This document shows, one piece after another, positions 13,175-18,174 of a stretch of 39,974 bases of DNA. Position 1 is the first letter of the stretch. Every line of letters begins with the position of its first letter. The notes beneath the pieces are model-generated. The model ran no database searches. It saw only the letters and a list, made by a program, of their open reading frames with translations, and was not told the origin of the DNA. The stretch covers positions 1 to 39,974 of the forward strand of contig JALAIB010000052.1 of assembly GCA_023645945.1 (NCBI GenBank), read 5' to 3'. A program made the translations under genes and the position numbers. Origin of the DNA: Diploschistes diacapsis. Its lineage: Eukaryota.

Positions 13175-16100
13175 TCAAAAAAACCCCAAGCCCCTACCAA
13201 GAACACCTTCCAAGAGCGCCCGTACCTCCCATTCCCCTTGGCCCCCAGTCCTTGCCACTGCCTCTGCTTTCTTCCACTTACCGAGCTCCGACCAACGCCT
13301 TAGCACGTTGCCGTCGAGCATTGCGCGTCCGCTGACGCTCATGTCAACTTCTACGTTCCGGTAGGCTTTCGGACTCAGGCCGAGAGGATGAGGCAGCGTG
13401 CTGGTCAAATAAGATTGCAGAGCTGCCAACGTCCGGTATGAATCCGCAGAGGCGCCTGTGGCAACGACAGGCAGGGATGTGATGAGAGATATAGCGCCGC
13501 TGTTAGTAGTTATAAGGATCTGCTGCTGAATCTCAGGATGTTCGAGCCCATCCACTTGCATATCGTCGTCTGCAGGTTCTTGCGCCAGATAGCGTTCCCA
13601 GGAGGTCTTTGATCGGGGAAGAAGCATCATCTTGGAGACGTCCAAGCCGGTATGAAAGGAGCTCAAATGAAGAAGGTGTTGGCCAGACAGTGACTTAGGG
13701 TCTAATCAAATCAGTATTCAAGTCAACGACCTGTGGATGTTTTCAAGAGCACGTACTGTGTGGATCAAAACGGAGAATGTGCATGTTAGCGTCCGCATCA
13801 GCAAGCAGGATGCAGAGGCCTCGTCCATCAGGGAGGAACTCTGCCGAAGCCACCCTGACATCACGTGCGGACTTCCCAAACAGCTTTAAATGGTATGGAT
13901 CTTCCTACGCTGGGCATTAGCTATTCCACCAAAGGACGCGGTAGGGAGGAATTACGCACTGTGTAGCCAACCAACCAAATCCCTTTGACAGCGTCTCCAA
14001 GTAAGCAAAGGCCTGTTCCTCTAAGCTCCCTTGCAACGCTGATGTAACACTGAACATCAATGAACGCTACTGGGAGCAATGTATTGTCTTCCTTCAACCC
14101 CCGTACCATGCACTTCTGACCGTGCGCGGCAATTAGGAAACCTTCGGTTCCTACCTGCGATATTGCTGTCACTGCTCCTTTATCTTTGTGCCGCGCCAGA
14201 GCTTTGAATTTCCAGCCTGTTTCCGGACAGCCGGGCTCAGGTACGACGGGAATGACGTCCAGAACGTACACGGAGCCCTGCGTGTTGATGTCCTCTCCCC
14301 GTATGAGGGCAGTTCCGACGGCGATCATATGACTTCGAGAGTGCGTGTTTTCGGATGTCTCTAGCGATACATTCTCAATGCACATCACTACCTCGCAATT
14401 TTCAAGCGTGAAGAGGTCAGTTTCTACCCAGGTAGATGGATCAACGAGACGGATGATGTCCTGATCCACTTGCGGGAGGAAGTCTGTTGTTTCTGATTCC
14501 CACTCAGGGTGGAACTCGTCATGTGGGAGCTTGAAATCCACTTTCAGGCTGGTTCCAACCACGTAGCGATCTGATGGCTCATGGTATCTGAAGGCTTTGA
14601 TCGTACTTGTCGTGTACATTCTTTCGACAGCCCACCCCGTCGAGAAATCCGCTTTCAAAGGTAATTTGGCAAAGGTAAGCCGTCCATATTTCCCAGGATA
14701 AGCAATATAATCGGGGCAGGCTTTCGTCCGTATCCTGGTCAAACTAGGTACTCCATCCATTTTGAGGTCTATGACCTTTGGGCTACTAGAGAGAGCTTTG
14801 AAGACGAAGCTTGGGGATCTTCCAGACAGGAAGACAGCGTGTTGACCGCCGAAATCCGACAGTACACGCAATTGGCTTGAGGTAGGAGCTCTCGAAGACC
14901 CAGATGGTTCATGCCGAAGAGCTTTAGGAACCTGATGATTGTCAACCTTTCGAAATCGTAGTGCGTGACTTGAGGAGGATTTTGTCTCATGATAGGGCGA
15001 GTAGATGATCAAATCGTCTTCTGTGGACCGTAGCTAAATTCGATGAGCAGTGGCAGCCGTGGCATGATGAAAGGTCTTACAATGAGGAACGGTGATCTGT
15101 GAAATTTGTCACCAAGGTCGGCAACTAGAATCTCCATTAAACGCTCACGAGCGTTAGACCGCCGTACAGTAAAGTCCACGGATAGGAAAGGGGGCAAAAA
15201 GCCTAAGCCTGGTGCAAGGTATATTGGGTTTTCAAGATCAGGCATGCGGTAAACCTGCGTGTTATGGTTAAATCGGAATTGCAACTGCATGAGGGATAGC
15301 ATTACCTGCAGGCCTCCATCTGGTCCAAGTAAGAACATCAAGACACTAGTGAGATCATCCTCTTCTGCATCCGAAGCTAGGTGGAAAGCGTCGTTCACAT
15401 CATCATATAAGGAACCAGACTGCCACTTCTGCGACGCCAACGCATCGCTGATCTGCATCTCTTCGAGATCACCAGAATCATCCGCTCGAAGAATGCCGAG
15501 TCGTCCATCGTCTCCCACGAGCAAGACAAAAGTATCCACGAAGCTTGCGGCTGCAACAGATAGTTCATCCGATAGGGGAATAATTTGTGCCAAACCAAAA
15601 TCTATGCGAACAATTAGACTTACGGCACGGGGAAGCATGGAGAAAAGAGCAAGGCTGAGGAATGGATATCATTGTCGCTACATCAAACATAGTTACATTT
15701 ATTGTTGGAAGATGACTGCCAACGAAGACACGTGCGTTATCCGGGACAAGATCATAGTTCATGGGCATCCAGCTGCGTAAAGTCGACAAACCCCGCATAG
15801 TTGCAAGACCAAAAGAAGAGCTTTGAGACCTACCTCCATCAAATGATCGTAATTCATTCTTCAAAGCTTGAACAATCCTTAACCCGCCGAGCAATGTCCC
15901 GATTTCAACTGTCGGGCCTGCTTCAGGCTCAAATTCGCAGTCCCGCAACGGTAAAATATTTTCCCCCTCAAGAATATAAGCGTTTGTAATTGCCTCACTG
16001 TAGTCCGGATCCATAGAAACTAACAGCACGTTATGATGATCGAACTCGGTCTCAGGAACTTTTCCAGATGACCCTTCCGCGTGGACGGCCCATAGGCGTG

Positions 16101-17811
16101 CAGCACCTGCAATATCGAACCTCTTAGTCACCAAGGGACATATGGTTGGGCTCATTCGGACCAAGCTAGACGAGCGACCTTGTCCACAGGCACCCACAAG
16201 ATCGAGCTTGTCCCAGGCTTTGTCCTCTCCATCGGAAGGATTTGGGAGCTTCGATTGCACGAGAGAGACATCCTTCAGGGGACCTAAATTCAGGAGACGG
16301 TCGTGGACTTTGAAAGACAAGTCACGGCCAAACTCTTCGGCTGATATAGTAGCAAATTGCTGCTTCTCCACATCCCTATCGTTCTCCATGTAGAGGTCAT
16401 CCTCCAGTTCGCTGTCTTCGGTTTCTTCCTCATCCTTGTCCGTTCCATTTGGCGTATCTTGGTTCATCGATGACTGTCTTCTCGACTGCTGTCTCCAACT
16501 TCTCGAAGACCAGCCAAGCACTGTGGCGTCCGCGTCTCGGCTGCCGATAAATATACGTGCGGGGCCAACGGATGAAGCACAGGATGCCGGTGCAGCGAGA
16601 AGCGAGCCCCCATTCGACGCGGGTATTTGGTATAGATTCATTCCTGAAACCGAACGACCGTCCAGCTTAAAACCTATTATCACGAGCTCGCCAAGACTTG
16701 TGACCAGCAAGAGATCTCCGTTCAAGGTTCCCAATTGCTCGGTAATGCAGCCCTCTAGCCTCAGGTCTAAGTCGCTCCAATCAACAAGGGGATAGGATGA
16801 CGAAGTTTTCGCCAGGGAATTGACCGCAACCCCATTCGCCTTGCCAGCTTGTCCCACATGTACAAGCACATTGCTTCCAATCAGTAAAGCCCCTCCAATG
16901 GGTGAAGGAAGTGGTATGACCTTGTCAACATCATTGGGCAAGCCGGAGACGGACAGTAACGGAGTCGACGCTTGCTGGTCCAAATCCAGCGTGTACACGG
17001 TATAGGCAACAACATCTCTCCGCTCGTGCAGTAAAGCTGATGATCTTGCGATTCGACAAGATAAAATTCCAATAGTTGGCTCACGATACTCGTGAAGGAA
17101 AGCAAGATGTAAAGGATGGGTCAATGCAGGGTCTAATTGTAGCAAAGAGAGGACAAAAGATGCCGAAGATGGCGATGAGCCTGGGTGCATGTCGCCATTG
17201 ACTTGCCGAGCGGATTGGCGGTTCTTGAGTTGAGAATCGAACTCAGACTCGAAATCATCCATCGCAAGATCATCTCCGCCTTGATTCAGAGGTAGAATAG
17301 CAAGGGAGCGAGCTCCAAATTTCAGAGCAGCACATCTACTTCCCGGATCAACAGTCAATATGCTATCACATTTGTTCAAGGCGGGTGCCCATGGGGGACC
17401 TTGAAGATCATCACGTTCGTAGTAGTGGATTGATACTGTCGAGATGCTATAACTTTCAGGGTCCCATTCCACCAAGCTCAGCTTCGCGTCCCGTACCGAA
17501 ACCAGGAGGAGTTCCCCTCCGGATTTAGATTGCTGCGATTTGACCCTTGCCAGAGATGTGATGGTGCCAGCAACGTCGAACTCGCTGACCAACACCAGCT
17601 TCGATAAATGTAATCTATCGCGCCGCTGTATCTTTGGCGGATTAGGCTGTGCTGCTGAGGGAACGGCGTCTGTGATGACCGATTTCACCGTGAATATCTG
17701 CAAGATGGATGATTTCGCAACGACAAGATTATTGGCGGATGAGGAGAGAAAAGGAAGAGAGACGGAAGAAGTGACGGCCGTTGGCGGTGTAAGGTCTGCA
17801 TAGCATTGCAT
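13175..17811 (-). CDS. CFT1: Cleavage and polyadenylation specificity factor subunit Cft1 (CPSF160/CPSF1); introns 15602-15833, 15255-15305, 15034-15080, 13905-13959, 13702-13756
   Basis: MQCYADLTPPTAVT start, DAKLSLVEWDP, STVSIHYYE, FLHEYREPTIGIL, GQKCMVRGLKEDNTLLPVAFID, HPLGLSPKAYR..LDGNVLRRWSEL. All five introns are GT-AG and restore the frame. Confidence 0.95.
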
Positions 17812-18174
17812 CTTCGCAGAGGCGGGGTGAAAGTGTCGCAGAGTCTTATCACCTTTCGTCACTTAGACTCCAGGAGCATGGAAGCAGCCTTGACGGTCCA
17901 TGAAGAGTGAGATACTTTATGCTTCATGCTGTAGGTATGCAGCATGGATGTGAACTGAAATGCAGAATTGTTTATTTGCGAGAAGCAATATTATTGTAAT
18001 CCCTGCTAGTGCATTCCTTATGATACCTGTGGCGCAGTTCAGCCCCCGTTTCAGACATGTGCGGGCTGCGCCACAATGACGACTTGTTGATGAGATGTCA
18101 GACGAGCTCTCTGCTCCCACCTTAAGTCATGATAGCTTCGCTCTTCATCAAACCTACGGACTGTGTCTATAACG
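17812..18174. promoter_or_regulatory. Compact bidirectional promoter between CFT1 and the LMBR1-domain gene
   Basis: 363 bp between divergent start codons. Confidence 0.6.

Follow-up and report, generated by a model that had tools for sequence, protein, structure and literature searches.

Why should one intron of the fungal CFT1 gene be several times longer than its neighbours? The question is raised by a 39,974-nucleotide (nt) stretch of DNA from Diploschistes diacapsis (contig JALAIB010000052.1 of assembly GCA_023645945.1), which was analysed at its full length and is called the window here. Its minus strand carries the gene for Cft1/CPSF160, a scaffold of the cleavage and polyadenylation machinery, and the original prediction made for this DNA had proposed that polyadenylation inside the long first intron yields a stop-less messenger RNA (mRNA) and thereby limits the expression of CFT1. 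Comparison with orthologous loci showed that the long intron is kept at the same position in many fungi, that it contains one conserved core with a poly(A)-type hexamer, and that the reading frame entering the intron from exon 1 is held free of stop codons up to this core and no further. Taken together, these features point to a candidate autoregulatory poly(A) site, whose copy in the window has drifted.

The CFT1 gene and its first intron

The minus-strand frame at 15565-17862 matched human CPSF160 (6fuw/6bly) in the PDB at E ~1e-40 and also yeast Cft1 (6eoj), and 574 long fungal CFT1 proteins matched the same frame. The best of these protein matches came from lichen-forming Lecanoromycetes, at only ~47% identity, as expected of a filamentous ascomycete whose close relatives are absent from the proteins compared, and the Pfam domain PF10433 was found on exon 1. 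By these matches the gene is CFT1/CPSF160, a member of the RSE1/DDB1/CPSF1 family of beta-propeller scaffolds. With eight orthologues, tblastn returned five exon blocks that span the orthologues from residue 1 to the end. It read through the second intron, since this intron of 51 nt is in frame and stop-free and appears as an insertion of 16-17 residues relative to the orthologues. The resulting gene structure is as follows:

13175 to 17811, minus strand: CFT1/CPSF160 gene, ATG at 17811 and TGA at 13177-13175, from PDB and orthologue matches, tblastn and splice sites read from the sequence
17811-15834, 15601-15306, 15254-15081, 15033-13960, 13904-13757 and 13701-13175, minus strand: the six exons, from tblastn blocks and splice sites in the sequence
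15602 to 15833, minus strand: intron 1, 232 nt, phase 1 (an Asp codon split as G and AT), from the tblastn gap and splice signals
15305-15255 (51 nt), 15080-15034 (47 nt), 13959-13905 (55 nt) and 13756-13702 (55 nt), minus strand: the other four introns, read from the sequence

The borders of intron 1 were fixed by protein alignment. In the orthologue P0013, for example, the match of residue 702 runs to 15835 and that of residue 703 resumes at 15602, and for eight orthologues the residues were consecutive across the gap; the intron is therefore 15833-15602, i.e., 232 nt. The length that the original prediction had given, against 47-55 nt for the other four introns, was thus borne out by both tblastn and the sequence. 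On the minus strand the intron begins with the 5' splice site GTAGGT (15833-15828), and it ends with a branch site CTAAT (15617-15613) followed by CATAG (15606-15602). With GT-AG borders, a branch site and contiguous flanking residues, its sequence has what is expected of a spliceosomal intron. Domain annotation of P0013 placed PF23726 at residues 595-759 and CPSF_A at 1065-1410, so that the intron-1 junction at residue 702 falls within PF23726, i.e., inside the second beta-propeller. The plus strand has a stop-free frame of 175 codons (15253-15780) that overlaps intron 1 and exon 2; such antisense shadows of coding regions are common, and we take this frame for one.

The oversized intron is conserved at the same position

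To place the intron of the window among its orthologues, metagenome contigs were scanned with an alignment of 37 orthologues. The scan yielded 66 fungal CFT1 loci, whose nearest named proteins belong to Leotiomycetes, Lecanoromycetes, Dothideomycetes, Eurotiomycetes and others. The intron-1 junction is covered in 55 of these loci and not in the remaining 11. A canonical intron interrupts the same codon position (Tyr-Asp-Gly/Asp) in phase 1 in 44 of the 55 loci. Its length is 200-454 nt in 36 of the 44 and 47-68 nt in the other eight; nine further loci have no intron at the junction, and two have a gap of ~70 nt that was not resolved. The remaining introns of the orthologous CFT1 genes measure ~30-104 nt. 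Since 36 of 55 loci are long at the same position, the oversized intron is a conserved trait and not a peculiarity of the window.

Three loci carry the longest versions of the intron, at 425-454 nt (L032, L047 and L049). Among the loci that are intron-less at the junction, or wholly so, L011 is a CFT1 contig with no intron at all and is 96% identical to a Rutstroemia protein; the CFT1 contig of L041 likewise carries no introns. L011 may be a transcript contig, and by these two examples some of the metagenome records look like spliced transcripts.

A conserved core in the long introns

For a comparison of the intron sequences themselves we used 33 distinct long introns together with that of the window, and 22 representative orthologues for the statistics of the core. 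The long introns could not be aligned except for one block of ~25 nt, with the consensus CATGTCCTATAGCATCAATGAAAGC and a variant ending in AATAGCATCAATACAAT. This core was found in all 22 representative long introns, 99-137 nt from the 3' splice site, and it is followed ~50 nt later by a weaker second block with the consensus CCATGTGCC. The hexamer within the core has the invariant form AAT-N-N-A, occurring as AATGAA (12 introns), AATACA (6), AATGGA (3) and AATATA (1). Counted from the hexamer, the proportion of A is 0.55 at positions 0 to +10, whereas at +10 to +20 T makes up 0.38 and G only 0.07; this U-rich, G-poor stretch contains C-A dinucleotides. Upstream of the hexamer sits a UAUAG element (TATAG).

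These features resemble known fungal poly(A) signals. In Neurospora, according to excerpts of a published paper, AAUGAA is the commonest poly(A) hexamer of 3' untranslated regions; it is part of an A-rich element at positions -30 to -10 that is flanked by U-rich sequence, and transcripts are cleaved between C and A (PMC5869017). The core is like this arrangement in having an AAUGAA-type hexamer and then a U-rich, G-poor stretch with C-A, and its UAUAG upstream of the hexamer is like the yeast UA-repeat element, as that element is presented in excerpts of a review (PMC12667328). Ordinary fungal poly(A) signals are degenerate, whereas the core is nearly invariant over ~15 nt across classes. To ask how specific it is, a position weight matrix (PWM) of the core, built from the 22 orthologues, was scanned over 713 kilobases (kb) of loci on both strands. 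Scores of at least 19 bits occurred solely in this intron, and the top score elsewhere was 18.0 bits.

We considered whether the core is kept as peptide, as RNA structure or as primary sequence. The lineages read it in either of two codon phases, as peptides such as ..CPIASMKAF.. or ..SYSINESL.., which argues that it is kept as nucleotides and not as peptide. A search of Rfam with the intron of the window and with 10 orthologous loci gave no match, and RNAalifold predicted no pairs on 23 sequences. Two hairpins drawn by eye paired in just 65% of cells, with covariation no better than in shuffles. Because neither an Rfam family nor a consensus structure was obtained, the core looks like a single-stranded sequence signal.

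A snippet of one metagenome locus deserves separate mention. The 1943-nt contig L018 runs from CFT1 exon 1 into the intron (L018:1740-1943) and ends in CAATGAAAGCATTT, 13 nt past the start of the hexamer, so that its end coincides with the predicted place of cleavage. The data are probably DNA, because L023, from the same dataset, retains two introns; the assembly may have broken off here because related species have this block in common.

The exon-1 frame is free of stops up to the core in most lineages

If the core marks a poly(A) site of the kind proposed, the frame that continues from exon 1 into the intron should matter. The long introns of 23 representative lineages, window included, were translated in this frame and their stop codons were counted. 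The interval that begins at the 5' splice site and includes the core comprised 1438 codons in each frame. Here the exon-1 frame contained 10 stops, whereas the two remaining sense frames contained 66 and 71; with 68.5 stops expected, the Poisson probability of finding no more than 10 is 1.3e-18. The antisense frames, with 100, 55 and 66 stops, were not depleted. Counted by lineage, 20 of 23 had no stop at all in the exon-1 frame over this interval, and in each of the other sense frames none of 23 was free of stops. The depletion ends just after the core: from 45 nt past the core to the end of the intron the exon-1 frame had 29 stops, against 34 and 31 in the other sense frames. The stretch ahead of the predicted cleavage site is thus open in 20 of the 23 lineages, the window among them.

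The first stop after the core lies inside the intron, 34-124 nt past the start of the core, in 16 of the 20 stop-free lineages, while four introns, that of the window among them, are open to their end. Since the upstream parts of the representative introns are at most 75% identical, the open frames are not one inherited frame. These results suggest that selection maintains the nucleotide sequence of the core and a frame without stops, and not the encoded peptide.

Individual introns varied around this pattern. The orthologous intron of L012 (L012:1289-1543) is 255 nt long, a multiple of three, and fully open, so that its retention would add 85 residues in frame and would not truncate the protein. 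The exon frame of L032 is open over all 454 nt, whereas L047 and L049, whose 5' ends are similar, have six in-frame stops each; these may reflect a recent relaxation of constraint or an indel error in the contigs.

The protein collection searched also contained sequences that read from exon 1 into the intron. Several of these read-through open reading frame (ORF) fragments run through the core in additional lineages. One protein-level assembly, P0138, which is labelled 'merc', comes from a fungus resembling L007. It extends from exon 1 via Tyr-Asp-Gly into the intron and breaks off close to the AATAAA of that lineage, ~12 nt before the core. If its 'merc' source is transcript-derived, RNA with the 5' part of the intron exists.

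The intron of the window retains length and open frame but a drifted core

We then compared the intron of the window itself with this pattern. The elements concerned, all on the minus strand, are the following:

15703-15698, minus strand: AATAAA, the hexamer of the original prediction, followed by TGTA at 15697-15694 (from the sequence)
15682-15679, minus strand: second TGTA (from the sequence)
15665 to 15689, minus strand: degenerate match to the core, TGTTTGATGTAGCGACAATGATATC, 10.3 bits with the PWM from 22 orthologues
15623 to 15633, minus strand: match to the second block, TCCCCGTGCCG, ~50 nt after the TAG of the core, as in the orthologues
15618 to 15623, minus strand: internal GTAAGT, in phase with exon 1 (offset 210), 22 nt before the 3' splice site

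The AATAAA and both TGTA motifs lie where the original prediction had put them, and its reading of the frame also held: the exon-1 frame has no stop within the intron and first stops at 15567-15565, whereas 5 and 7 stops interrupt the remaining sense frames. To judge these features against chance, the intron was shuffled 5000 times with dinucleotides preserved and the splice signals kept fixed. The probability of no in-frame stop was 0.074 and that of an AATAAA being present was 0.039; over both strands of the window together there are 22 AATAAA, i.e., 0.064 per 232 nt. Taken singly, then, the features of the window's intron are mildly unusual (P 0.04-0.07), which is suggestive and not significant.

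The match to the core was likewise graded. Among 2000 shuffles, 0.5% scored as high as its 10.3 bits, and so did 16 of 686 tiles of the window. When the core and the second block were required together with their spacing, the window scored 16.6 bits, a value reached in none of 1000 shuffles and in 8 of 686 tiles; a pyrimidine-rich tract precedes the second-block match. Where the orthologues have their conserved hexamer, the window reads AATGAT (15673-15668), ~30 nt downstream of AATAAA, and the second TGTA occupies the position of the conserved TATAG, just upstream of AATGAT. The core of the window is 80 nt from the 3' splice site, compared with 99-137 nt in the orthologues. It is thus degenerate, while the position, the length and the open frame of the intron are kept.

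The AATAAA itself fared less well. It occurs in just 3 of the 33 distinct long orthologous introns, and when aligned by eye to L055, without a score, it reaches the conserved hexamer only with a 5-nt gap. Its presence in the window could be due to replacement or addition in this one lineage, or to chance. The alignment of orthologous introns that had been suggested as a check therefore gave a divided answer: length, core and the lack of in-frame stops (20 of 23) are conserved, while the AATAAA block is not and the match of the window to the core is weak. The original prediction had also conceded that the TGTA motifs lie downstream of the hexamer and not, as usual, upstream. This objection falls away if AATGAT is the relevant hexamer, and it stands for AATAAA.

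The internal GTAAGT is absent from the matching place in the aligned orthologues. It is specific to the window and probably not a usable donor, because 22 nt to the acceptor is too short. Pairing it with an AG at 15552-15551 (73 nt) would be compatible with the frame and would remove 17 conserved residues.

A predicted autoregulatory poly(A) site and its rivals

How might an intron with these properties act? In the model that we favour, intron 1 is the window's copy of an ancient oversized intron, kept in many Pezizomycotina, that would hold a regulated poly(A) site. On the nascent CFT1 transcript, splicing would have to compete with the cleavage and polyadenylation machinery, for which Cft1 is a scaffold. 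When 3'-processing activity is high, the transcript would be cut ~15-35 nt after the conserved A-rich hexamer within the intron. The short mRNA, consisting of exon 1 and part of the intron with no stop codon, would be degraded by non-stop decay, and ribosome quality control would deal with the protein made from it, which would comprise a complete first beta-propeller, part of the second and none of the third. Full-length CFT1 mRNA would drop, and the negative feedback loop would be closed. Were there a stop upstream of the site, the shortened mRNA would instead be as stable as any other and would encode an N-terminal fragment.

The model is favoured because it accounts at once for the length of the intron, for the core, for a zone without stops that gives out just past the core and for the gene in which all this occurs. 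In particular, a stop-free zone ending just after the core is what is predicted for a stop-less transcript made by intronic polyadenylation. The intron lies in the gene of a 3'-processing factor, and both its size and its internal poly(A)-type signal are conserved in 36 orthologues; the window keeps the length, with a weak core. Cleavage at the site, decay of the product and a response to the dosage of Cft1 are steps that we infer. At the level of the clade, we judge a conserved, autoregulatory intronic poly(A) site giving a stop-less truncated CFT1 mRNA to be somewhat the better bet; that the copy in the window is still active seems a little less probable than this. The proposal of stop-less mRNA is thus borne out in part, and comparison has made it a good deal stronger, in that long intron, core and stop-free frame are conserved together in Pezizomycotina and the AATAAA on which it was built is not.

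Several observations weigh against this model. The 5' splice sites of the long orthologous introns are mostly strong (GTAAGT or GTGAGT), unlike the conserved weak site at CstF-77. The eight short-intron and nine intron-less loci are without the core, so that the device would be dispensable in some lineages. All 10 upstream stops fall in L003, L005 and L047, which bear the core and have early in-frame stops. Of 17 read-through ORF fragments in the protein collection, plus the cluster member P0140, none ends in a run of lysines, the proxy used for poly(A)-tailed non-stop transcripts. The 10.3 bits of the window equal the score of the weakest orthologue (L053), where the other 21 score 17.3-33.1 bits, and nhmmer profiles of 43 and 95 columns, built without the window, gave no hit at the intron, whether the whole window or the intron alone was searched. 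Finally, a fungal poly(A) signal does not normally require a sequence as tight as the invariant stretch of ~15 nt, and the core may bind another factor.

This last point leads to one of the two rivals that survive best. The core could be bound by a regulator of splicing that slows removal of the intron, a role that Cft1 or the processing complex might itself play; the retained mRNA would be non-productive and no intronic cleavage would occur. A strictly conserved, single-stranded-looking core that is tighter than a typical fungal poly(A) signal would suit such a regulator, as would the length of the intron relative to its neighbours and the extension of the P0138 assembly from exon 1 into the orthologous intron. 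Retention alone, however, leaves it unexplained why stops are excluded up to the core and not beyond, given that in a retained intron a premature stop arises wherever the first stop sits; moreover, it would have to be a coincidence that the hexamer is A-rich and that a U-rich, G-poor stretch comes after it. We therefore regard this rival as unlikely.

The second concerns the window and not the clade. In this organism the intron could be a relic whose position and length were inherited and whose core has decayed, so that AATAAA, the TGTA pair and the open frame would be there by chance. The failure of nhmmer to find a core in the window agrees with decay, and so do the modest single-feature probabilities (P 0.04-0.07, and P ~0.005-0.02 for the PWM match), the shortened distance of 80 nt to the 3' splice site and the existence of lineages that lost the element. 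Those core-less lineages, however, also lost length (47-68 nt or no intron), whereas the window's intron is still 232 nt, and the open frame, AATAAA and a two-block match with the right spacing co-occur in it. Decay in the window is thus an improbable explanation, on a par with the splicing regulator.

Less probable again is a stable, functional short isoform of Cft1, produced by intronic polyadenylation or retention and consisting of the N-terminal propeller with an intron-coded tail up to the first stop past the core. The 16 of 20 stop-free lineages that stay open for 34-124 nt past the core start and then meet an intronic stop fit such an isoform, and fragments of a scaffold could compete with the whole. 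Against it, the tail peptide is not conserved and the core is read in two phases; stops at earlier positions would face no selection; the break inside the second beta-propeller (residue 702 within PF23726, 595-759) would leave an incomplete fold; and the positions of the first stops past the core look random. Conserved long introns in fungi often host small nucleolar RNAs (snoRNAs), and the fairly constant distance from core to 3' splice site would suit a small non-coding RNA, yet this explanation is very improbable. Rfam had no match for the window's intron or for the 10 orthologous loci searched, the window's intron has no D box (CTGA), neither a consensus structure nor covariation above controls was obtained, and the frame-specific lack of stops would be left unexplained.

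Two further ideas were tried and dropped. A weak tblastn extension had suggested that the intron was born by duplication of exon 2; there was no DNA similarity to the flanking exons above that of shuffles, and the frame-0 translation of the intron had no match to a CFT1 profile of 60 orthologues. Alternative splice sites, a poison exon or a micro-exon were looked for by eye: the conserved TAG has no canonical branch site in most lineages, and nothing donor-like, with no G at +5, lies downstream of the core. An in-frame alternative donor is excluded because the core occurs in two codon phases.

Relation to known systems

The closest likeness is to genes of other 3'-processing factors. Intron 3 of the vertebrate CstF-77 gene (CSTF3) contains a poly(A) site that exerts negative feedback; in the excerpted text of its description, conservation extends to the site and to the size of the intron, and no protein product is apparent for the short isoforms (PMC3708835). 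CSTF3 intron 3 and Drosophila su(f), as far as those excerpts go, are like the CFT1 intron in being part of a core 3'-processing gene and in combining an unusually large intron with conservation of its size and of an internal signal. The CFT1 case differs in concerning the CPSF160/Cft1 subunit, in another kingdom and on a scale of ~0.2-0.45 kb. CSTF3 has a weak 5' splice site, whereas here the sites are mostly strong and stops are absent, by conservation, up to the site. Use of the site and feedback are established for CSTF3 and predicted for CFT1.

Vertebrate PCF11 and Arabidopsis FCA and FPA are likewise 3'-end factors that attenuate their own genes by early polyadenylation, as excerpts of one report state (PMC7471841). 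The CFT1 intron would share early polyadenylation of the own gene with them; the genes and the lineages differ. To our knowledge, no stop-free-frame signature has been reported for PCF11, FCA or FPA. The predicted mRNA, polyadenylated before any in-frame stop, is also like the non-stop transcripts that arise by premature polyadenylation, with which an Arabidopsis paper on FPA and NLR genes reportedly deals. Those transcripts come from exonic sites, whereas in the CFT1 intron purifying selection appears to hold the frame open. We know of no description of such exonic sites as conserved autoregulatory devices.

For fungal CFT1/CPSF160 itself, a full-text literature search found no intronic element or autoregulation described within the collection searched, in agreement with the original prediction, which had known of none. 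In excerpts of a 2025 review of fungal alternative polyadenylation, Cft1 is named once, as a subunit of the complex (PMC12667328).

Significance

If the model is right, feedback by intronic polyadenylation would extend to the scaffold of signal recognition and to a third kingdom. Organisms with short introns would offer, in a compact element of ~25-60 nt, a system for studying the competition between splicing and polyadenylation. Other genes can be searched for the same signature, in which an oversized intron contains a conserved A-rich core and stops are depleted from a single frame as far as that core. The CFT1 intron would also be a rare case in which selection to keep a transcript stop-free is visible. 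For the filamentous ascomycetes, the comparisons raise the prospect, on which we are nearly evenly divided and a shade on the doubtful side, that a tuned poly(A) site has been kept in a scaffold gene, probably since before the classes diverged, with its frame held stop-free by selection and with non-stop decay and ribosome quality control as the route of disposal. Non-stop decay would then be used on purpose, sparing the cell a truncated and possibly dominant-negative fragment of the scaffold.

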